64,000 nucleotides of DNA, taken from contig JAFAZI010000031.1 in assembly GCA_019239875.1 (NCBI GenBank), positions 9,233-73,232 on the forward strand, read 5' to 3'. A program made the translations under genes and the position numbers. Positions 6,950 through 36,428 of the stretch are shown here, one piece after another (the first letter of the stretch is position 1; each line of letters begins with the position of its first letter). This DNA comes from Frankiaceae bacterium (lineage in GTDB: Bacteria; Actinomycetota; Actinomycetes; JAFAQI01). The notes beneath the pieces were generated by a model. The model did not search any database, had not been told where the DNA came from, and worked only from the letters and a program-made list of their open reading frames with translations.

Positions 6950-8203
6950 TCAGCCGGTGGGCAGGGAGCGGAGCCGCGATTCGAGGAAGTCGCGCTCGAC
7001 GGCGTTGTCGGTGAGCGCGATCGCGTCGAGGTACGCCGCCCTGGCATCGTCGGCTCGCCCGACGCGGCGCAGGAAATCCGCCCGCGCCGCCGGCAGGTAG
7101 CGGTATCCGGCGAGCTCCGGCTCAGCTGCCAGCGCGTCGACGGCGGCAAGCCCAGCCGCCGGACCACGCGCCATCCCGACCGCGACCGCGCGGTTGAGAG
7201 CGACCACCGGCGACGGCCACACGGCACAGAGCTGGTCGTAGAGCTCGACCACCTCCTCCCAGTCGGTGTCCGCCCACGTCGGCGCCGCGGCATGGACGGC
7301 GGCGATCGCCGCCTGTAAGGCGTACCGCCCGGGTGGGCGGTGGTCGGACGCTTCGCGCACCAGCAGCAAACCCTCGCGGATCTCGCTCTGGTTCCACTGC
7401 GACCGGTCCTGTTCCTCCAGCAGGAGCAGCCGCCCGGTGCGGTCGACCCGAGTGTTCCGCCGAGCATCGGTCAGCAGGATCAGCGCGAGCAGGCCGGCGA
7501 CGTCCGGATGGCTCGGCAACAATGCCCGCAGCATTCGCGCGAGCTCCAGTGCCCGCTCGACGAGGTCACGGCGGACGAGGTCTGCGCCCACTGGCGCCGT
7601 GTGTCCGGTCGTGAAGACCAGGTGGACGACGCCGAGGACGGCGGCAAGCCGCTCGGGCAGCTCGTCGGCCGGCGGCACGCGGTACGGGATCTTGGCCGCG
7701 GCGATCTTCTGCTTCGCCCGGGTCAACCGCGCTGCCATCGTCGGCTCGGAGACGAGGAAGGCACGGGCTACCTCCGCCGTGCTCAACCCGCAGAGCAGGC
7801 GCAGCGTCAACGCCAGCTGGGCTTCGACGGCCAACGCCGGATGACAGCACGTGCAGATCAGTCGGAGCCGCTCGTCGGGGATCTCGTCGCCACCGACGGC
7901 CTCGGCAACGTCCGCGACAAGCTCGTCGGGCACGAGCTTGGGCAGCGCGCGTTGCGCGGTGGCATCTCGGCGATGCAGGTCGAGGGCACGGCGCCGAGCG
8001 ACGGTGGTCAGCCACGCGCCCGGCTTGGCAGGGATGCCGCGGGCCTCCCACTGCTGCAGGGCCTGGGCGTACGCGTCTTGCACGCACTCCTCGGCGCGGT
8101 CGATGTTGCCGGCGACGCGCACCGTCGCGGCGAGGACGAATCCCCACTCGCGACGGTGAGCCTCGGCGACAGCGGCCGCGACCTCGGTCTGGGTGCGTGG
8201 CAC
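6950..8203 (-). CDS. ECF-type RNA polymerase sigma-70 factor with long C-terminal (DUF6596/TPR-like) extension
   Basis: Sigma-70 region 2 (REWGFVLAATVRVAGNIDRAEECVQDAYAQAL) and region 4 (TAEVARAFLVSEPTMAARLTRAKQKI), followed by a ~200-aa extension. I place the start at GTG 8203; the track ATG at 8326 would add an S/R-rich junk N-terminus. Confidence 0.7.
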   Translation of the reverse strand: MPRTQTEVAAAVAEAHRREWGFVLAATVRVAGNIDRAEECVQDAYAQALQQWEARGIPAKPGAWLTTVARRRALDLHRRDATAQRALPKLVPDELVADVAEAVGGDEIPDERLRLICTCCHPALAVEAQLALTLRLLCGLSTAEVARAFLVSEPTMAARLTRAKQKIAAAKIPYRVPPADELPERLAAVLGVVHLVFTTGHTAPVGADLVRRDLVERALELARMLRALLPSHPDVAGLLALILLTDARRNTRVDRTGRLLLLEEQDRSQWNQSEIREGLLLVREASDHRPPGRYALQAAIAAVHAAAPTWADTDWEEVVELYDQLCAVWPSPVVALNRAVAVGMARGPAAGLAAVDALAAEPELAGYRYLPAARADFLRRVGRADDARAAYLDAIALTDNAVERDFLESRLRSLPTG

Positions 8204-8210
8204 GTTTGGC

Positions 8211-8549
8211 TCAGGAGTCGAAGACCATGATCGGGCGGAGCTCGACGGCGCCGTACTTCGCGGGGACCTGCTTCGCGATCGAGATCGCCTCGTCGAGATC
8301 CGCGGCCTCGATGAGGTAGTAGCCACCGAGGGCTTCCTTGGTCTCCCCGAACGGTCCGTCCGTCACGACACCGTCGCGGATCGTGGTCGCCGTCGCCGTC
8401 GGCTGCAGGGCGTTGCCCCCCACCAGCTTCGGCCCGTTGTTCTCGCCGAACTTCATGTGTGCGGCATAGACCTCGGCGTGCACCTCGGCGGCGCCCGGAC
8501 CTTCGAACGGCGCCTCGTCCTCGTAGATCAGGATCAGGTACTGCGACAT
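8211..8549 (-). CDS. YciI-like (Dabb-fold) family protein
   Basis: MSQYLILIYEDE...GGYYLIEAADLDEA is typical of YciI. A strong RBS (GAGAGGAAAG) sits before ATG 8549. It lies 7 bp downstream of the ECF sigma gene. Confidence 0.8.
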   Translation of the reverse strand: MSQYLILIYEDEAPFEGPGAAEVHAEVYAAHMKFGENNGPKLVGGNALQPTATATTIRDGVVTDGPFGETKEALGGYYLIEAADLDEAISIAKQVPAKYGAVELRPIMVFDS

Positions 8550-8645
8550 CTGCTTTCCTCTCGATCGGGGCCCGTAGGTCGAGCCTCTCAATCATTCCGA
8601 CGTGCTGGTCGGACCCAGATCGACAGCGACTGTCGAGAAAGCTTG

Positions 8646-9401
8646 TTACGACGGCACGAAACGGCTGAGCAGTCGCTGCAGGACCGGGTCCTCGGCCGGG
8701 ATCCGGCCGTAGAAGGTCAGGACCATCTCGAGCGTCGGCATCGCCACGACACCGACGTCCCCCGCGACGAGTGCTGCTGCATCGCCGACCACAAGCGTGC
8801 CGTCGTGGATCGCGAACCCGATCGGTTCGTGCTCACCGAGGCGCAGTTCGTACCGCTCGTCGGGGGCGTCGGCGCGCAACCACGCCCCCATCAGCTCACC
8901 TGGCACCATCAGGTGGGCGTCGGCCTCGCTGATCTCCCAGGGTTGGTCGAGGGCGCGCGCCACGTCGTACCCGTGGATCAGGAACTCCCCGAGGACGACG
9001 TGCAGGGCCGGCGTCATCGTCGTCTCGACACCGCCGTGGAAGGGGAACACTCGGTCGTCGGCGATCTTCGGGTAGACGAGATCGAGCGCCGTGTGGACAT
9101 CGGCGCGCAGCAGCTCGGCGAGGGCCGCGGGGTCGCGCTCCTCGAGCTCGTCGAGACAGATCTGGTTGAGGCCGGCGGTCTCCTCCGGGGTCGCGCTGCG
9201 GCGCGGATCGCGATATCCCCGCCGAATCACCGTCAGCACGTGGCCGATCGTCTCGCCGACGGTCCATTCGAGCGGTGGAACGGGGCGTGCCGCGTCAGAC
9301 GGGGTCACGGCCGCCGCCAGCTCGATGAATCGAGCCGACGCGTCGTGCAGTGCGGCCATCACTTCTGCGCGCGTCCCCACGCCGCTGACCGTACTGCCCA
9401 C
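8646..9401 (-). CDS. maleylpyruvate isomerase N-terminal domain protein (DinB_2 / mycothiol-dependent TIGR03083-like)
   Basis: N-terminal DinB-like four-helix region with a His-containing motif (GETIGHVLTV); 251 aa. An alternative start at 9359 is possible. Confidence 0.6.
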   Translation of the reverse strand: MGSTVSGVGTRAEVMAALHDASARFIELAAAVTPSDAARPVPPLEWTVGETIGHVLTVIRRGYRDPRRSATPEETAGLNQICLDELEERDPAALAELLRADVHTALDLVYPKIADDRVFPFHGGVETTMTPALHVVLGEFLIHGYDVARALDQPWEISEADAHLMVPGELMGAWLRADAPDERYELRLGEHEPIGFAIHDGTLVVGDAAALVAGDVGVVAMPTLEMVLTFYGRIPAEDPVLQRLLSRFVPS

Positions 9402-22082: not shown

Positions 22083-22754
22083 TTGCCCATGGGGCTGCGG
22101 ATCGTCATCGCCGAGGACTCGTTGCTGGTCCGCGAGGGTGTGCGGGGCGTGCTCGACAGCCAGGACGACTTCGAGGTTGTCGGGCTGTGCGAGGACTTCG
22201 ACGGGTTGCTGGCCGCAGCCGACGAGCACCAACCTGATGTCGTGGTCACCGACGTCCGGATGCCACCGACCCAGAGCGACGAGGGGATCCGTGCGGCGCT
22301 GCAGCTGCGCGAGACACATCCGCGCGTGGGGGTCGTCGTGCTGTCGCAGTACGCCGAGCCGGCGTACGCACTGCCGCTGCTCGAGACCGGCAGCGACGGC
22401 CGCGCGTACCTGCTCAAGGAGCGGGTCAGCGAGCCCGCTCAGCTCGCCGAGGCGGTCCGCGCTGTTGCAACCGGCGGATCGGTGATCGACCCGAAGGTCG
22501 TCGAGGTGCTCGTGTCCGCACGGTCCGCCCAGAGCAGATCCCCGCTCGAACAGCTCACACCTCGGGAGCTGGAGGTCCTCGCCGAGATCGCGCAGGGCAA
22601 GAACAACGCGGCAGTCGCGGCGGCGCTGTTCCTCACCGAGCGCGCTGTCGAGAAGCACATCAACGCGCTGTTCGCGAAGCTGCAGCTGACCGACGAACCC
22701 GACGTCAACCGCAGGGTGAAGGCGGTCCTTCTCTACCTGTCCGAGACTGCGTAG
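22083..22754 (+). CDS. NarL/LuxR family two-component response regulator
   Basis: REC domain (VVTDVRMPP) plus C-terminal LuxR HTH (LTPRELEVLAEIAQGKNNAAVAAALFLTERAVEKHINALFAKL). Confidence 0.85.
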   Translation: MPMGLRIVIAEDSLLVREGVRGVLDSQDDFEVVGLCEDFDGLLAAADEHQPDVVVTDVRMPPTQSDEGIRAALQLRETHPRVGVVVLSQYAEPAYALPLLETGSDGRAYLLKERVSEPAQLAEAVRAVATGGSVIDPKVVEVLVSARSAQSRSPLEQLTPRELEVLAEIAQGKNNAAVAAALFLTERAVEKHINALFAKLQLTDEPDVNRRVKAVLLYLSETA

Positions 22755-27184: not shown

Positions 27185-27934
27185 TCACGGCGTGGCGACC
27201 GCCTCGGACGCCAGGTCATCGCTGACCACCTTGCCGTCGTGCATTCGAACGATGCGTGACGCGCCCGCCGCCACCTCGGCGGAGTGCGTGACCATCAGGA
27301 TCGTCTGCCCGTCGTCGTGCAATCGGCGGAACAGCTCGAGGACCTCGTTGCCGCCGTCACTGTCGAGGGCTCCGGTTGGCTCATCGGCGAGCAGCAGAGT
27401 TGGCGAGTTGACGAGAGCGCGAGCGATCGCCAGGCGTTGGCGTTGGCCGCCAGACAGCACGGCGGGCAGCTGTGCCGTGCGATCACCGAGGCCCAGCAGG
27501 TCTAGCAGATCACGAGCCCGCGACTCCGCCGGCTTGCGCTTCGATCCTCCGATCACTGCAGGGAGGACGAGGTTCTCGAGGCAGCTGACCCCGTCGAGCA
27601 GGTTGAAGAACTGGAAGACGATGCCGACGTTGTGCCGCCGGAACCGGGCTAGCCAGTCCTCGTCGCGCCCGGTGATGATCTGGCCGTCGACGACGATCTC
27701 GCCCTCGTCGGCGACGTCGAGTCCGGCGACGAGGTTCAACAAGGTCGACTTGCCGCAACCGGATGGGCCCATGAGGGCGACGAACTCGCCCGCGGCGATG
27801 TCTAGATCGGCACCTCGAAGCGCCCTGACCGGAGCCAGCTCGGCCGTGAACGTCTTCCGGACGCCTCGTACCGACAGCGCGCTGGCGGCAGGCGCGGCGG
27901 AGCTCGCTCCGGTGGCGTTGGTCGTGGTGGTCAT
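27185..27934 (-). CDS. ABC transporter ATP-binding protein (MacB/LolD/BceA-like)
   Basis: Walker A GPSGCGKSTL, signature LSGGQRQRLAIARAL, Walker B LLLADEPTGALD. Start overlaps the upstream stop (ATGA). Confidence 0.85.
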   Translation of the reverse strand: MTTTTNATGASSAAPAASALSVRGVRKTFTAELAPVRALRGADLDIAAGEFVALMGPSGCGKSTLLNLVAGLDVADEGEIVVDGQIITGRDEDWLARFRRHNVGIVFQFFNLLDGVSCLENLVLPAVIGGSKRKPAESRARDLLDLLGLGDRTAQLPAVLSGGQRQRLAIARALVNSPTLLLADEPTGALDSDGGNEVLELFRRLHDDGQTILMVTHSAEVAAGASRIVRMHDGKVVSDDLASEAVATP

Positions 27935-29289
27935 GCGCGTGCCCCCCCAGGGCTGGTCGGTTCGATGGTGGTTGATTCTGTCGCGTGCGCCGGCCCGAGG
28001 ACGCGCGCCGCGGTGACCGGCATGACGCGTCCTTTGACCTTCTGTGCCGGCAGCGATTCGAACTGCCAGCCGTTGCCGAGCTCGGCCGTCGGTCCGCTGA
28101 CCACCGTGGTGCCGGCCGGTCGGGCGAGGTCCTGGAGACGCTGGGCCAGGTTCACGATGTCGCCGACGACGGTGTACTCCAAGCGCTCCTCGCTGCCCAG
28201 AAGCGCCGCCGCGACCTCACCAGTCGACAGGCCGATCCCCAAGCCGAACGGAGAGAGTCCGGCGGCACCCCATGTGGCGTCGAGCGCCGCCTGCCGCTCG
28301 TGCATCGCCGCAGCCGCGGCAAGCGCCTGCGTCGCATGATCAGCCTGCGGGAACGGCGCCCCGAACACCGCCATCACCGCGTCCCCGACGTACTGCATCA
28401 CCGTGCCGCCGTGAGAGAGGACTGCCGCGTTCATCTCCCGGCGGTGCTCGTTCAACTGACCGGCGAGCGCCGCCGGGTCGGTGCGCTCCGCGATGCCGGA
28501 GTAGCCGCGAACGTCGGACATGAGCACCGTGACGGTCAGGCGCTCGGTCTGGCCCGGCTGGCCGCCCTGCTCCCGGAGCTTGCGAACGAGCCCACCGGGA
28601 AGAAGTCGCGACAATGTCTCGCCCTGTTCTTCCCGATCGACGATTGCCTGCTGCAGCATCCGTAGTCGACGCAGCGCGCCCTCCCGACCGGCTGTGGCAT
28701 CCTGCGCCAGATGCAGGAACAGTGCTTCGATCTCGCCATTGATCGTCTCGAGCGGGCAGGCCCGGGCGGCGGCGATCGCCTTGACCGTGCGTCCCTCGGC
28801 GATCATCCGCAGCAGGTCCTCCTCGGCTGGGGCGAGCTCGTCCGGGCCTCGCACCGGGGTCACGAGGGCAGCGACGATCTCCGGGTCGAGCATCGACCCG
28901 CCGGTCGCGACCTCGCGAATCGCACGGGCCAGCCGGTCGCCATCCGCGACGCGGTCCTTCAGCAGATAGGCGAAGCCGGCGGCGCCGTCGGAGAGCAGTG
29001 ACACCGCATACTCCGGCTCGTCGTACTGGGAAAGCACGACAACTCCCGTTCCTGGCAGCCGTCGCCGGATCTCCTTGGCGGCCTCGATGCCTTCGTTCTG
29101 GAACGACGGGGGCATCCGGATGTCGGTGACGAGAACCTGCGGCGCGAGCGACGACGCGGTGTCGACGAGCTCGTCGTAGTCACCGGCCACGCCGACGACG
29201 TCGACCTCAGGGTCACGATCGAGGAGGGCGCGCACGCCCTCGCGGACGATCAGGTTGTCGTCCGCCAGCACCACGGTGATCGCTTGCAC
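27931..29289 (-). CDS. response regulator (REC + degenerate LuxR-type HTH) fused to a class III nucleotidyl (adenylate/guanylate) cyclase domain
   Basis: The REC domain is about 60% identical over ~100 aa to the regulator at 22083 (IRMPP...VVVLSQY...LLKDRV...VATGGS). A LuxR-like helix follows (LLRMIAEGRTVKAIAAA). The C-terminal cyclase has the metal-binding Asp residues (VLMSDVRGYS, YVGDAVMAVFGAP) and the transition-state NxxxR (DIVNLAQR). Confidence 0.8.
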   Translation of the reverse strand: MQAITVVLADDNLIVREGVRALLDRDPEVDVVGVAGDYDELVDTASSLAPQVLVTDIRMPPSFQNEGIEAAKEIRRRLPGTGVVVLSQYDEPEYAVSLLSDGAAGFAYLLKDRVADGDRLARAIREVATGGSMLDPEIVAALVTPVRGPDELAPAEEDLLRMIAEGRTVKAIAAARACPLETINGEIEALFLHLAQDATAGREGALRRLRMLQQAIVDREEQGETLSRLLPGGLVRKLREQGGQPGQTERLTVTVLMSDVRGYSGIAERTDPAALAGQLNEHRREMNAAVLSHGGTVMQYVGDAVMAVFGAPFPQADHATQALAAAAAMHERQAALDATWGAAGLSPFGLGIGLSTGEVAAALLGSEERLEYTVVGDIVNLAQRLQDLARPAGTTVVSGPTAELGNGWQFESLPAQKVKGRVMPVTAARVLGPAHATESTTIEPTSPGGARA

Positions 29290-29450
29290 GGGGCCATTAA
29301 CCCGCGCCGGGGCCGATCAGCGAAAGGGGGGCAATGCCCGTGTTCTCGGATGCTGGCACCCCTACCGGTTCACGGGGCTGCGCCCTCGTACCCACCGAGC
29401 GCGATTCCTACGGTGACGGAAGGCCGCTGGACTCGGCGCGACCTTAGGGA

Positions 29451-30458
29451 GTGGTGGGGATGAAGGTAACTGGCAGCGCGACGTCGATCTCATGGATTCC
29501 CTCGGAGGCCGTCACTGGCCCGACGAAGGCAACGTTCGGGCTCGGAATCAGCCACTACGACAGCCCGCCGCCTGACGTCATCACGGATCTTGAAGGCCTG
29601 TGTGCCGCGGACGGCTTCCGCTTCGCGAACCGCCTCACGGTGACCGCCGAGTTCGACGGTGACCGCCTCGTTTCCCATGACGTCGAAGGCGGGATCGTCA
29701 TGGGGGCCACGACGGTGAACGTCGCCAAGCTCGGCGCGACCTTCGAGGCGGTGTCGCTGCCGGACCTGCGGGCGCCGGTGGAGAAGGGGCCCGGATGGGT
29801 CCGCGTCACGCAGACCTGTGGCGGTCGTACGGCGCTGCCGCTGCCTCGCCCGGTCCGTCACCCACCGTTCGTCAAGCTGCAGGCTCCGATCGTGTGGACG
29901 ACGATCGCGCTGACCCTGCACTCCGACGGCCGTACCGAGGTCGCGCTGCCGAGCGCGAGCCGGTTCCCGCGGCACTGGGTCTATGACACCGACGGCAAAC
30001 TCGTGCTCAAGACGGCGCTCGCGGAATATCACGAGTGGATGGCTCATTCGTTCGGCAAGCGGACCCCGTGGGGCAACGACGACTCACAGGTCGTGACGAC
30101 CGCCGCTGAGACCGCGCTGGAACGCGACCTGTCCACCCGGATCATGCGAGCCGACGCCACGCACGACGTGCACAAACTCGACGCCGGCACCGTCCTCGCG
30201 AAACAAGGCGACCCTGGCGACGAGCTCTACCTTCTGCTCGACGGTGTCCTCTCGGTGGACGTCGATGGCGAGTCTGTCGCCGAGCTCGGTCCCGGCGCGG
30301 TTGTCGGCGAGCGAGCCGTGCTCGAGGGAGGTCGTCGTACGTCGACCCTGACGGCCAGCACGAGGGCAAAGGTCGCAGCGGTGGCCGCCGCCGACATCGA
30401 CCTGGATCGCCTTCGGGAGCTGGCAGAAGGACACAACCGGGAGTCCGCCGACTCCTGA
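29451..30458 (+). CDS. cyclic nucleotide-binding domain protein with an N-terminal domain of unknown function
   Basis: C-terminal CAP-family cNMP-binding beta-barrel (LLDGVLSVDVDGESVAELGPGAVVGERAVLEGGRRTSTLTA). The N-terminal ~220 aa carries no domain I recognise, no TM segment and no HTH. It is divergent from the cyclase-fusion gene across a 161-bp spacer. ATG 29460 is an alternative start. Confidence 0.7.
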   Translation: MVGMKVTGSATSISWIPSEAVTGPTKATFGLGISHYDSPPPDVITDLEGLCAADGFRFANRLTVTAEFDGDRLVSHDVEGGIVMGATTVNVAKLGATFEAVSLPDLRAPVEKGPGWVRVTQTCGGRTALPLPRPVRHPPFVKLQAPIVWTTIALTLHSDGRTEVALPSASRFPRHWVYDTDGKLVLKTALAEYHEWMAHSFGKRTPWGNDDSQVVTTAAETALERDLSTRIMRADATHDVHKLDAGTVLAKQGDPGDELYLLLDGVLSVDVDGESVAELGPGAVVGERAVLEGGRRTSTLTASTRAKVAAVAAADIDLDRLRELAEGHNRESADS

Positions 30459-30745
30459 GTGGCGATCGGTCGACACCGATGGGCCATGCGCCCCTCAGGC
30501 GACGCCGAGCCGTGCGAAATGGGCGGTAAGAGTGTCCCCGGCCGCCCTTTCCGCCCGGCTCGGCGATCGTGTCGACACCGATGGGCCATGCGCCGAGGTG
30601 ACGCCGAGCCGTGCGAAATGGGCCGTAAACCCCGGCATTTTGGCCCGTTTCGCGTGGCTCGGCGATCGGTCGACACCGATGGGCCATGCGCACCCCGACC
30701 TGCGCACCGATGGGCCATGCGTGCGCGGCGCTCGGCGATCGGTCG

Positions 30746-30750
<5 letters not shown>
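30459..30750. repeat. intergenic tandem repeat, ~3 copies of a ~100-bp unit
   Basis: The unit core GGCGATCG(G/TG)TCGACACCGATGGGCCATGCGC recurs at 30461, 30562 and 30661, with a fragment at 30706. Each copy is followed by a second conserved block, GACGCCGAGCCGTGCGAAATGGGC(G/C)GTAA (30501, 30600). The period is 99-101 bp with roughly 85% identity. It lies between the convergent 3' ends of the cNMP-binding gene and lon. Confidence 0.8.
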
Positions 30751-33109
<2,359 letters not shown>

Positions 33110-33201
33110 TGCCTGTCTTCGAGCCGATCAGAGTTGAGTCCGGTTCGCTCAACGGCAGGATGCGCCAGATTGTTTCCGGTGTTCGCTCTGCGAGAACGCC
33201 G

Positions 33202-35127
33202 CTACTTCCGCGCGATCGGGGCGGTGATCAGCTCGTCAGGAATGCCGAAGGCCTCGACAAGGTCGGAGGCGAACGGCCGTAACGCATGACAGAGGTCGTT
33301 CACCGCAGTGGTGATGGCCTTGCTTCGAGTGGGCGTGAGCCGGTTGTGTTCGAGGAACCAGGCGCGTTCGGCCTCGATCGTCGCCAGCGCGTGAAGGTCC
33401 GCAAGCCGCGACATCAACACCTTGGTATCGCCATCCTCCATTCGCTCGACGGCGGCCGCGAACGCCTCCATGATGCGGGCGTCGGCGTGCGCGCGAGCGG
33501 CGAGCAGCAGGTGGTCCTGCGCGTGATTGAAGACGACGAACGGATCCTCGTCGGCCTCGAATCCCTTCTTGAGGCGCCGCGCGACACCCTCGAGCGTGTG
33601 CTTCTCCCGGAACGCGATCAAGGACAGCTGGTAGTCGCGATCCGTGAGGTTGGTGTCCTCGTCCGTGCCGGGGATCGCGTCGACGATGCGTTGGAACAGC
33701 GCCCGCGCTCCGGTGCGCTCGATCACGACTTCGGCGACGTGCTCGGCGACGAACCGCACCGTGCCGATGCTGTCGAGCTCACCGAACTCGGCCTGGAAGT
33801 TGGTGAGCAGGGTCTTCGCGACCAGCTGGAGCAGGACGGTGTTGTCGCCTTCAAAGGTTGTGAAGACGTCGGTGTCGGCCTTGAGTCCCGCCACCTGGTT
33901 CTCGGCGAGGTAGCCCGCGCCGCCGCAGGCCTCGCGGCAGTCCTGGATGGTCTTCGTCGCATGCCAGGTGGAAACGGCCTTCAGTGCGGCGGCGAAGGTC
34001 TCGAGCTTGCGCCGAGCCGCATCGTCGTCGGTGCATTCGGTTTGAACCTCGTGGAGCTCACCGACCAGTTCGGCCTGGGCGAAGCTGAGGGCGTACGTCT
34101 TCGCCAGAGCGGGAAGCAGCACTCGCTGATGGGCCAGATAGTCGAGGACCGCGATCTCGGTCTCGCTGTCCGGTGCCTTGAACTGCCGGCGGCGGTCGCC
34201 GTAGCGAACCGCGATCAGCAGTGCTTTCTTGGCAGCGCTCACGGCCGCACCGGAAATGCTGATCCGGCCCTGAACCAGCGCGCCCAGCATCGTGAAGAAC
34301 CGCTTGTTCTCGCTCTCGATGGAACTGGAGTAGGTGCCGTCCGCTGCCACCGTGCCGAACCGGTCGAGCAGGTTGTCGCGGGGGATCCGGACGCCGTCGA
34401 ACGAGATCCGACCGTTGTCCACGCCGTTCAGGCCGGCCTTGATGCCGTCGTCCTCGATGCGGACGCCGGGTTGGATCTCGCCGGTCTCATCGCGGATCGG
34501 AACCAGGAACGCGTGGACGCCGTGTGACTCGTCGTTAGTGATCAACTGGGCAAACACCGCCGCCATCCGGCCGTGGCGCGCCGCGTTGCCGATGTAGTCC
34601 TTGCGCGCCTCGTCGTCGGGCGTCGAGATGACGAACTCATCCGTCGCCGGGTCGTAGGTCGCCGTCGTACGCAGCGATTGGACATCGGAGCCATGACCGG
34701 TCTCGGTCATCGCGAAGCAACCGGGGAGGGCGAGCGACAAGATGTCTTCGAGGTAGCGGTCGTGGTGCCGCTTCGTGCCCAGGTTGCGCACGGTGCCTCC
34801 GAACAGCCCCCACTGCACGCCACCCTTCACCAGCAGGGAGAGGTCTCCGAACGCCTGCGTCTCGAAGCCACTGATCGCACCTCCCACCTCGTCGAGGCCG
34901 CCGTACTCCTTCGGGAACAGCAGTTTGGGCCCGTCGCTCTTGGAGATTGCGAGGGCCTGCTCGAAGATGTGGTCGCGCTGCTCGTCGAGGGTGAGGCCCT
35001 CACGCGGGACGAACACCGGATCGCGCAGCGTCTCGCGTGCTTGGTCGCGGACGTCCGCCCACCGGCCGTCGAGCAGTCGGCGGATCCTTGCCACATCGAT
35101 GTCCAGGTCGAGGGCGTCGATCGTCAT
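33202..35127 (-). CDS. acyl-CoA oxidase
   Basis: 641 aa with an acyl-CoA dehydrogenase/oxidase fold (CFAMTETGHGSDV, ACGGAGYL) and an ACOX C-terminal domain. Confidence 0.85.
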   Translation of the reverse strand: MTIDALDLDIDVARIRRLLDGRWADVRDQARETLRDPVFVPREGLTLDEQRDHIFEQALAISKSDGPKLLFPKEYGGLDEVGGAISGFETQAFGDLSLLVKGGVQWGLFGGTVRNLGTKRHHDRYLEDILSLALPGCFAMTETGHGSDVQSLRTTATYDPATDEFVISTPDDEARKDYIGNAARHGRMAAVFAQLITNDESHGVHAFLVPIRDETGEIQPGVRIEDDGIKAGLNGVDNGRISFDGVRIPRDNLLDRFGTVAADGTYSSSIESENKRFFTMLGALVQGRISISGAAVSAAKKALLIAVRYGDRRRQFKAPDSETEIAVLDYLAHQRVLLPALAKTYALSFAQAELVGELHEVQTECTDDDAARRKLETFAAALKAVSTWHATKTIQDCREACGGAGYLAENQVAGLKADTDVFTTFEGDNTVLLQLVAKTLLTNFQAEFGELDSIGTVRFVAEHVAEVVIERTGARALFQRIVDAIPGTDEDTNLTDRDYQLSLIAFREKHTLEGVARRLKKGFEADEDPFVVFNHAQDHLLLAARAHADARIMEAFAAAVERMEDGDTKVLMSRLADLHALATIEAERAWFLEHNRLTPTRSKAITTAVNDLCHALRPFASDLVEAFGIPDELITAPIARK

Positions 35128-35423
35128 CAGGTCCTCCCCGCGCGTTGATCTTGACCCAGATTTACCCGGCGCCGGGCGGAATGAACACCCGTTCTCGCGG
35201 GCATAAATGCGACGTATAGGAAGCGAGAGTTCTCATGCCGTCACATCGATCCGGGACTTTCATGCGCGAGCGGGAACGCGAAACGCCGCAGAAAGTCGCG
35301 GAGATCAGATATCGCAAGCAGGGTATGCCGACCAGACGGACGATCACATTGCCCGACTCGAAGGTGCGCAGCCCGCAGCAGACCAAGGGCTGAACTGCCC
35401 CAACCGACCTGTCCTGGCGGGAA

Positions 35424-36428
35424 TCAGGCGCTGACCGCCGCCACATCCTCGGCAGTCGCGCCGGCTTCGGCCAACGCCGCCACCAACTCATCCTTCGTCA
35501 TCGAGGATCGACCTGCGATGTCGTGGTCCGCAGCGAGCTGGGTGAGTTTGGCCTTCGACAGCTTCTCCAACTGCGGCCGCGCTGCCCCCTTGCCCTTCGA
35601 TGGGGCATCCGGCTTGGCGGACCCGCTCTTCGTGGACTTGCTGGCCGCCTTCCCGGTGCGAGCGACGGACGCCTCGAGGGCGGCCATGAGGTCCACGACG
35701 TTCGTCTTCGGCTTCTCAGCCTTGGCGACGACCGCCTTGCCCTCGCGCTTCGCTTCGATCAGCTCCTCGACCTTGTCGCGATAGGTGTTGTGGTACCGCT
35801 CCGGCTCCCATTCGACGGTCAAGGACTCCACAAGGGTCTTCGCGACGTCGAGTTCGCGCCCTTCGAACCGGCTCTTGTCCGGCAGCGAGTCCAACTCCTC
35901 GCTCGCCGAGCGGATCTCCTCCGGGAAGAACATGGTCTCGACGACGAGGACGTCGTCCTGCGGCCGGATCGCGACCAGGTGCTCCTTGTCGCGCAGGATC
36001 AGGGTCGCGACACCGATCTTTCCCGACTCCTCCATGGCCTGTCGCAGCAGGGAGTAGGCCCGGTCGGCACCCTTCCCACGCGGCGCCAAGTAGTAGGACT
36101 GCCGGAAGTAGATCGGATCGATCGATTCGAGGTCGACGAAGTCACTGATCTCGATGAGCTCGGATTTGCCCGGAGCAACCTCCTTGAGCTCTTCCTTGGT
36201 GACGATGACGTACTCGCCGTCGCCGAGATCGAACCCGTTCACGATGTCAGAGGCCGGGACCTCCTCGCCGGTCACCTCATCGACCTTCTTGTAGCGGATC
36301 CGATTCCCAGTCTTGCTGTTGAGCTGGTTGAAATGGATCGTCTGGTCCTCGGTGGCGCGGAACATACCGACGGGAACGCTGACCAGCCCGAAGCTCACGA
36401 AGCCGGTCCACAATGCCCGCGCCATCAC
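35424..36428 (-). CDS. ku: non-homologous end-joining protein Ku, with C-terminal Lys-rich tail and SAP/HeH-like motif
   Basis: Ku core (LWTGFVSFGLVSVPV...IRYKKVDEVTGEEV). The C-terminus is KAEKPK.../SKSTKSGSAKPDAPSKGKG followed by LTQLAADHDIAGRSSMTKDELVAALAEAG. The start may be the second Met (36425). Confidence 0.85.
   Translation of the reverse strand: MMARALWTGFVSFGLVSVPVGMFRATEDQTIHFNQLNSKTGNRIRYKKVDEVTGEEVPASDIVNGFDLGDGEYVIVTKEELKEVAPGKSELIEISDFVDLESIDPIYFRQSYYLAPRGKGADRAYSLLRQAMEESGKIGVATLILRDKEHLVAIRPQDDVLVVETMFFPEEIRSASEELDSLPDKSRFEGRELDVAKTLVESLTVEWEPERYHNTYRDKVEELIEAKREGKAVVAKAEKPKTNVVDLMAALEASVARTGKAASKSTKSGSAKPDAPSKGKGAARPQLEKLSKAKLTQLAADHDIAGRSSMTKDELVAALAEAGATAEDVAAVSA

Follow-up and report, generated by a model that had tools for sequence, protein, structure and literature searches.

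A predicted cyclic-nucleotide receptor with an unnamed N-terminal domain, encoded beside a conserved set of cyclase, kinase and ABC transporter genes

We describe a gene at positions 29451-30458 (forward strand) of a 64,000-nucleotide stretch of contig JAFAZI010000031.1 (positions 9,233 to 73,232; Frankiaceae bacterium, assembly GCA_019239875.1), a stretch that we call the window throughout. Its product, named X-CNB or simply the receptor, is probably a dedicated cytoplasmic receptor and effector of a chromosomal, two-component-driven cyclic-nucleotide circuit tied to a MacB/FtsX-type ATP-binding cassette (ABC) transporter, a reading to which we assign a probability of about 0.65. The protein combines an N-terminal domain (N-domain) without a named family with a C-terminal cyclic nucleoside monophosphate (cNMP)-binding domain, and it is encoded divergently from a response regulator-cyclase (REC-cyclase, REC being the receiver domain), whose operon continues with the genes of the transporter and of a histidine kinase; many soil Actinomycetota and Dormibacterota share this head-to-head order of receptor and cyclase genes. 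As a member of the cNMP-binding superfamily the receptor is of a kind already known; new here are its output domain, the fusion of receiver, helix-turn-helix (HTH) and cyclase with an invariant Gln, the link with a MacB/FtsX transporter and a kinase, and a dedicated partner protein of the metallo-beta-lactamase (MBL) fold. What is known of cyclic-nucleotide signalling in Actinomycetota comes mainly from mycobacteria, in which it acts through transcription factors, an acetyltransferase and a few other outputs.

An intact cyclic-nucleotide-binding domain

The open reading frame (ORF) was confirmed and comprises 335 amino acids (aa) when counted from GTG. A database copy from a metagenome-assembled genome (MAG) labelled 'Frankiaceae bacterium' (P0001) is 100% identical and has 332 aa; the ATG at 29460, three codons inside the mechanical ORF, is therefore the likelier start. 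Residue numbers nevertheless follow the 335-aa numbering that starts with the GTG at 29451. The window is high-GC DNA (63-72% GC), and with relatives in at least 572 species genomes and 7304 homologues scored at E<=0.001, the ORF is not a chance one. Mean column identity in the strongly conserved family is 47-64%. The receptor (isoelectric point 5.3, 35.3 kDa) lacks a transmembrane (TM) segment, its highest Kyte-Doolittle mean over 19 residues being 1.05, and is predicted to be a soluble protein that binds cyclic nucleotides.

The sole Pfam domain of the receptor is cNMP_binding (PF00027, CAP/PKA type), which matched residues 241-316 at an E value of 1.3e-15 and exceeded its curated threshold. 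The phosphate-binding cassette is intact (G286-E287...R296-T297, with Gly-Glu assigned to the ribose 2'-OH and Arg-Thr/Ser to the phosphate), and G280, P281, G282, G286, E287, R296, T299 and A302 did not vary in 49 homologues. The CAP-type barrel with a phosphate-binding Arg, which an earlier note on this DNA had read from the letters, is thereby borne out. Residues G86, E87 and R97 of PsPycTIR, and their counterparts in CRP, make the ribose and phosphate contacts equivalent to those of the receptor cassette, and the base is specified at the +46 position, occupied by S128 in CRP and N143 in PsPycTIR, with a corresponding position in XC_0249 (PMC11224242). The C-helix of the receptor stops 39 residues past R296, short of this position, and the base preference can therefore not be read from the receptor. 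A GHxRE motif conserved at the C-terminus, with H328 invariant in the 49 homologues, is a candidate lid.

No HTH family of Pfam or NCBIfam matched the receptor, which ends 19 residues after the Pfam match (316 of 335), and the NCBIfam CRP model covered only residues 238-326 with 18.5 bits against a cut-off of 266. Because no winged HTH follows the cNMP-binding domain, the receptor is not a CRP/FNR factor.

The N-terminal domain

For residues 1-222 there was no match in Pfam, NCBIfam or PADLOC, and when 24 family members were scanned individually at E<=10, nothing recurrent appeared for the N-domain. This agrees with the earlier note, which had recognised no HTH, TM, TIR, GNAT or other output in this part, and no housekeeping family emerged either. 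An AlphaFold2 model of residues 1-222, built with 24 homologues (mean local confidence, pLDDT, 80; predicted template modelling score, pTM, 0.81), is nearly all beta, with ~14 strands and three short helices, and places a linker helix at residues 220-231. When the model was compared with the PDB and with viral models, the sole PDB fold neighbour was 3c5p (BAS0735 of B. anthracis), which superposes over most of the domain at 15% identity; the search of viral models returned nothing at E<=0.001. The family profiles A2 and A4, one of them made from 35 divergent representatives, did not retrieve 3c5p from all PDB sequences at E<=10. Unlike the receptor, BAS0735 is a stand-alone protein of 194 residues without a cNMP-binding domain; we take it to be a structural-genomics protein of unknown function, and a literature search on BAS0735 and 3c5p found nothing relevant.

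A profile of the N-domain run against 1.84 billion cluster representatives retrieved 1367 proteins at E<=0.001; nearly all full-length members among the best 150 had ~330 aa and the same layout of N-domain and binding domain, the two being almost always fused. Four apparently longer architectures (P0171, P0224, P0247 and P0254) were read as frameshifted or out-of-frame gene calls, an odd-length variant (P0248) was frameshifted, and two seemingly stand-alone N-domain proteins (P0132 and P0144) were cut at contig ends. Among the odd-length matches inspected the only plausible real variants were P0135, with two cNMP-binding domains, and P0136 (452 aa), which carries an extra Mpo1-like domain (PF06127) C-terminal to its cNMP-binding domain.

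Conservation extends along the whole N-domain, with the motifs SWIPSE, HYDxPPP, FRFAN, QTxGGRT, VWTT, GASxFPRHW and TPWG, and 43 columns were invariant in 24 sequences that are 54-87% identical to the window protein. Among representatives of only 33-55% identity, W15, P17, G124, W149, G160, P173 and H175 were still invariant and S14, D37, R57, Q121, T122, S170, F172, W196 and W207 nearly so; E19, H35, R126, R133, R174 and K187 were conserved besides among closer homologues. To judge from this conservation, the N-domain is a real, constrained and unnamed domain, and the polar and aromatic residues kept in it suggest a ligand-binding or active site rather than a scaffold. We favour a gated ligand-binding or catalytic module, at somewhat less than even odds, over a pure adaptor, which we consider unlikely.

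The partner cyclase and its product

The receiver of the REC-cyclase (PF00072, E 4.7e-15) has the complete residue set when read from the translation (D10/D11, D56, S87 and K111). It is followed by a degenerate HTH of the LuxR/GerE type, for which Pfam GerE was marginal (E 0.088), and NarL-type NCBIfam models align to residues 4-194, that is, the receiver and most of the LuxR-type HTH. The class III catalytic domain (PF00211, E 3.4e-17) aligns best with Cya2 (2w01) and CyaB (3r5g), and in this alignment the metal-binding D259 and D303 and the transition-state residues N380 and R384 are kept. The base-specifying position, Lys in CyaB and Glu in Cya2, is occupied by Gln299, with Thr373 at the partner position. 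The Lys of adenylyl cyclases is thus replaced, and the pair of Gln with Thr or Ser recurred in 57 of 57 cyclase orthologues, which means that the product is not predictable from the usual rules.

The M. tuberculosis enzyme Rv0386 reportedly has Gln at the same position and is said to act as an adenylyl cyclase that also shows some guanylyl cyclase activity, and for this reason we take cyclic AMP (cAMP) as the default product, the base being uncertain. The earlier note had named cAMP in one of its two readings; the complete catalytic residues uphold the cyclase, and the exchange of Lys for Gln leaves cAMP an assumption. The note's further claims, that this is the only cyclase gene in the window and that it lies head-to-head with the receptor gene across 161 bp, hold: tblastn with this cyclase domain and with the cNMP-binding domain recovered each of them only once in the window at E<=1e-3, and the spacer is 161 bp long up to the GTG and 170 bp long up to the ATG.

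Just past the kinase gene, and convergent with it, lies the gene of a canonical NarL-type response regulator, a paralogue that shares 46% identity with residues 4-194 of the REC-cyclase. A single kinase may therefore serve two regulators, one feeding a transcriptional branch and the other a cyclic-nucleotide branch.

Table 1 Features of the receptor locus in the window
Feature	Position	Strand	Basis or remarks
Receptor gene X-CNB	29460..30458	+	332 aa from ATG 29460; ORF; identity of P0001
N-terminal beta-rich domain (predicted), residues 4-222	29460..30116	+	No named family
C-terminal cNMP-binding domain, residues 226-335	30126..30455	+	Pfam; conserved cassette
Phosphate-binding cassette G280-A302 (E287 and R296-T297 within)	~30288-30356	+	Alignment
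Divergent intergenic region between receptor gene and REC-cyclase operon	29290..29459	.	Sequence read
Candidate operator, 7-2-7 palindrome CGGATGC-TG-GCACCCC	29347..29362	.	57 nt from REC-cyclase start codon
Response regulator-cyclase (REC-cyclase), 452 aa	27931..29289	-	Pfam Response_reg, Guanylate_cyc, weak GerE
ABC transporter ATPase	27185..27934	-	PF00005
MacB/FtsX-type ABC permease, 791 aa	24760..27135	-	FtsX (two matched stretches), MacB_PCD
HisKA_3 sensor histidine kinase, 523 aa	23189..24760	-	HisKA_3 and HATPase_c; MctS-, LiaS-, NarX-like
Canonical NarL-type response regulator (REC and GerE HTH)	22083..22754	+	tblastn; Pfam; NCBIfam MadR-, MctR-, NarL-like
Lon protease, acyl-CoA oxidase-like gene, Ku homologue with Rho_N-like tail	30746-36428	-	Window flank

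A conserved gene module

The minus-strand genes of the module are tightly packed in the window: the stop of the cyclase gene and the start of the ATPase gene share 4 nt (ATGA), and the permease stop and the kinase start share 1 nt. When one genome per GTDB species was scanned, a relative of the receptor turned up in at least 572 genomes, and the best 80 of these were compared locus by locus by tblastn with the window's genes; by label they belong to Actinomycetes, Acidimicrobiia, Solirubrobacterales and Dormibacterota. An orthologous REC-cyclase lay within ~6 kb of the receptor gene in 58 of the 80 loci (58-76% identity in the cyclase domain) and was directly divergent from it in 48, mostly across 126-189 bp. 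The earlier note had asked whether homologues of the receptor always adjoin cyclases: they are not scattered away from them, and 22 loci have no orthologous cyclase nearby. A different cyclase (31-40% identity) was close by in four loci, and in ~7 loci without any cyclase an FtsX permease or kinase gene still lay near the receptor gene. The ABC ATPase was matched in 51 of the 80 loci, the FtsX permease in 41 and the kinase in 37, counts that include some distant paralogues or genes on the far side of the receptor gene.

The layout is seen most clearly in the called genes of Microbispora, where an operon of REC-cyclase, ABC ATPase, MacB_PCD/FtsX, FtsX and HisKA_3 kinase genes runs divergently from the receptor gene, and a Lactamase_B_2 gene follows the latter with a 4-nt overlap. 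A 526-kb metagenome contig has a Microbispora-like layout with an amidohydrolase gene inserted before the receptor gene. None of the 80 loci showed Lon, acyl-CoA oxidase or Ku by the module (tblastn), the genes that flank it in the window; it is thus the module that is conserved and not the wider neighbourhood. A literature search for the module as a whole found no paper that describes it. The full module also occurred in three MAGs labelled Bifidobacteriaceae (L020), Saccharimonadales (L056) and Acidiferrales (L060), possibly on mis-binned contigs.

The gene downstream of the receptor

Clustering of ORFs over the 80 loci revealed a gene of ~285 aa that starts a median of 3 nt after the receptor stop in 44 loci, and tblastn raised the number of loci with this gene directly following to 47; examples of the gene are those of L081 (9996-10769) and L037 (7012-7875). 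Where genes had been called, in three loci, its start and the receptor stop share 4 nt. The product is an MBL-fold protein (PF12706) with an HxHxDH motif (H69-L-H71-W-D73-H74) that is invariant in 31 sequences. Its profile matched RNase Z/ElaC (E 8e-13), B. subtilis YhfI (6kns, 7.7e-6) and BA1088 (1zkp, 7.2e-6), and over its full length the protein matched NCBIfam NF041851, 'cyclic nucleotide-degrading phosphodiesterase', at an E value of 1e-7, far below the cut-off of that model. YhfI, yeast PDE1, RNase Z and Apyc1 are grouped as MBL-fold class II phosphodiesterases; RNase Z and the cNMP phosphodiesterases have a common fold, and YhfI prefers cAMP and cGMP as substrates (PMC9117128). The simplest reading of these matches is that the protein is a signal-terminating phosphodiesterase, with an RNase-like activity as the alternative.

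The gene has no homologue in the window (best tblastn E 0.043) and none in the window's closest relative in the set (L001). At the place where most relatives carry it, the window has tandem repeats: the 288 bp from the receptor stop to the convergent Lon gene (30461-30750) hold approximately three units of ~100 bp, each with an inverted repeat of 22-24 nt. The 17-mer CACCGATGGGCCATGCG occurs four times in this segment and nowhere else in the window, against 0.03 occurrences expected; no Rfam family matched the repeats.

The divergent promoter region

The spacer between the receptor gene and the REC-cyclase operon contains a palindrome, CGGATGCTGGCACCCC at 29347-29362, which occurs once in the window and is not significant by itself. 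We compared 49 spacers (48 from relatives and that of the window) with shuffled sequences. Their commonest 8-mers assemble into the family consensus GGGGTGC-NN-GCACCCC, which was present with <=2 mismatches in 17 of the 49 spacers (0.2 expected) and with <=3 mismatches in 31 (2.3 expected); in 12 of the 17 best matches it stands ~57-58 nt from the cyclase start codon. NarL-family dimers use 7-2-7 geometry, and one of the two NarL-type regulators is for this reason suspected at the site. Scans of 29200-30850 with Rfam and for promoters and terminators gave chance hairpin matches only and no consensus sites.

Proposed circuit and alternatives

The earlier note had weighed a local second-messenger circuit against antiphage signalling of the Pycsar or CBASS kind. 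The former is supported and can be extended, as the cyclase is itself a response regulator and the genes that follow it in the operon encode an ABC ATPase, a MacB/FtsX permease and a HisKA_3 kinase. By analogy with other transporter-coupled two-component modules, the kinase would sense a signal that is probably tied to the co-encoded transporter or to the envelope, and would phosphorylate D56 of the REC-cyclase. Class III cyclase active sites form only at the dimer interface, and dimerisation driven by the receiver would, as expected for the family, assemble them. The cyclase would then make a 3',5'-cyclic mononucleotide, by default cAMP, with the base left uncertain by the invariant Gln. This nucleotide is predicted to bind the C-terminal domain via E287 and R296-T297 and could reposition the C-terminal helix and the linker helix, thereby switching the beta domain that would constitute the output, in the favoured version as an allosterically gated ligand-binding or catalytic module. 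In most relatives the RNase Z/YhfI-like MBL phosphodiesterase probably ends the signal, a gene that the window's genome would have lost from this locus, and the conserved palindrome probably allows a NarL-type regulator to co-control both operons. A more far-reaching version, which we put forward only tentatively, is that of a new pathway, widespread in soil Actinomycetota and Dormibacterota, in which a signal from the envelope or of antibiotic type would be converted by the transporter-coupled two-component system into a cyclic mononucleotide, possibly other than plain cAMP in view of the invariant Gln; this would gate the N-domain, with its BAS0735-like fold, as a new catalytic or ligand-binding domain under cNMP control, and the MBL protein would reset the signal.

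Several points weigh against this proposal. Orthologous cyclases are missing near the receptor gene in 22 of the 80 loci, and the MBL gene is absent from 33, the window counted among them. The Gln/Thr pair is neither an adenylyl (Lys/Asp, Lys/Thr) nor a guanylyl (Glu/Cys, Glu/Gly) signature. The N-domain is without known activity, ligand or partner, its fold was assigned from a predicted model and not from a solved structure, and 3c5p, the one fold neighbour, offers no characterised function as a guide. The protein proposed to bind the palindrome is a guess.

A cyclase gene beside that of a cNMP-binding effector is equally the gene logic of Pycsar, where infection would trigger the cyclase and the nucleotide would activate the receptor, leading the N-domain to kill the cell or arrest it. 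The PADLOC models PycC and PycTIR do match the cyclase and cNMP-binding domains, the non-canonical Gln leaves room for an unusual nucleotide, and an N-domain without an assigned activity leaves room for toxicity. These matches concern generic domains, however, since the PycTIR and Effector models cover only residues 237-316 and nothing of the effector part, and the receptor has no TIR (Pfam), no TM segment and no other known killing domain. The fusion of the cyclase to a receiver, co-operonic with a kinase and an ABC transporter, indicates a phosphorelay as its input instead. The family is very highly conserved, with synteny fixed across classes and two phyla and with housekeeping genes at its flanks (Lon, acyl-CoA oxidase and Ku in the window, DnaE and DAHP synthase in Microbispora), and searches of 72,556 plasmids, 50,697 phage genomes and 2.9 million viral contigs returned no relative. 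Such conservation, fixed synteny and lack of matches in these collections are the opposite of the usual defence signature, and we consider an antiphage role the least probable of the explanations discussed here. Only slightly less improbable is that the receptor merely sequesters the nucleotide and shapes its free pool without a downstream output, a buffering role of the kind that has reportedly been proposed for abundant cAMP-binding proteins of mycobacteria. A single cNMP-binding domain and no recognisable output would fit such a sponge, but conservation of the first 220 residues is no weaker than that of the binding domain, as the 43 invariant columns in 24 sequences illustrate, and a pure buffer would not keep a domain so consistently fused to it.

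More serious, though still unlikely, is the possibility that the N-domain is a protein-protein module through which the receptor would act as an adaptor or feedback regulator and tune the ABC transporter, the kinase or the MBL phosphodiesterase. The receptor gene stays by FtsX or kinase genes in the ~7 cyclase-free loci, and the MBL gene directly follows it in 47 of 80 loci, with the 4-nt overlap where genes were called, which suggests matched expression and possibly a complex; moreover, the beta fold has no recognisable catalytic signature and matched no enzyme family. Against this stand the many polar residues invariant in closer homologues (E19, H35, D37, R57, Q121, R126, R133, S170, R174, H175 and K187) and the family-wide invariance of W15 and H175, which look more like a ligand-binding or active site than a flat interface. 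In addition, 33 of 80 loci, counting the window, keep the receptor but have no MBL gene, so that regulation of the phosphodiesterase cannot be its sole role. We retain the dedicated receptor and effector of a two-component-driven circuit as the preferred reading.

The module is of interest because it is compact and strongly conserved, occurring in at least 572 species genomes, and because it connects a cyclase, a dedicated receptor and usually a phosphodiesterase to a MacB/FtsX transporter and a two-component system. As the genes for input, messenger, receptor and reset adjoin one another, the pathway is testable in culturable Microbispora, Nonomuraea, Nocardioides and Jiangella, and the invariant Gln makes the identity of the messenger an easily answered question. 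Finding the function of the N-domain would give a new domain family its name and bring to light a new kind of cyclic-nucleotide output; the tentative new pathway, if true, would define a new family of cyclic-nucleotide effector domains and a new receiver-to-cyclase relay.

Relation to known systems

The local logic of cyclase and receptor matches that of Xanthomonas campestris, where XC_0250 is a guanylyl cyclase and XC_0249 joins a cNMP-binding domain to GGDEF. In the present module the output domain is unnamed rather than GGDEF and precedes the binding domain, and the cyclase, joined to a receiver and a degenerate HTH, lies within a kinase/ABC-transporter operon. A cNMP-binding domain is likewise fused to a second domain in M. 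tuberculosis Rv0998 (Pat), which carries a GNAT acetyltransferase, and in Bdellovibrio Bd1971, which carries an EAL phosphodiesterase; the N-domain matches neither, and we know of no dedicated adjacent cyclase in these two systems.

In Pycsar (PycC with PycTIR or PycTM) a cyclase gene also adjoins one whose product joins cNMP binding to an effector domain, and the binding domain of PycTIR (8jsk) matches that of the receptor in structure and in sequence. The present effector differs in being without TIR or TM segments, the cyclase is under receiver control and the family is chromosomal and highly conserved; instead of a two-gene unit with a cyclase free of phosphorelay input, there is an intact receiver in an operon with ABC ATPase, permease and kinase genes. 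Pyrimidine-specifying residues have been described for PycC (PMC11224242).

The clustering of an FtsX-type permease and its ATPase with a histidine kinase and a response regulator recalls modules of the BceRS-BceAB type. The kinase is here of the HisKA_3 type and the regulator NarL-type, not BceS and OmpR, the permease has MacB_PCD, and the extra output of the regulator is a cyclase and not transcription alone.

Other genes at the loci

In one lineage (L083) an amidohydrolase gene (7808-9001) separates the receptor gene from the promoter region, and its end overlaps the start of the receptor gene; the nearest NCBIfam model is that of Xaa-Pro dipeptidase. A CrtI/CrtO-like FAD oxidoreductase of ~480 aa, absent from the window, was present in 28 of the 80 loci. 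We considered it and the amidohydrolase as parts of one metabolic pathway and dropped the idea, the former occurring in 28 of 80 loci and the latter in a single arrangement. The oxidoreductase gene mostly follows the MBL gene, for example in L022, L032, L036, L038 and L054 (~7850-9300), and stands upstream in L021, L027, L035, L048 and L062.

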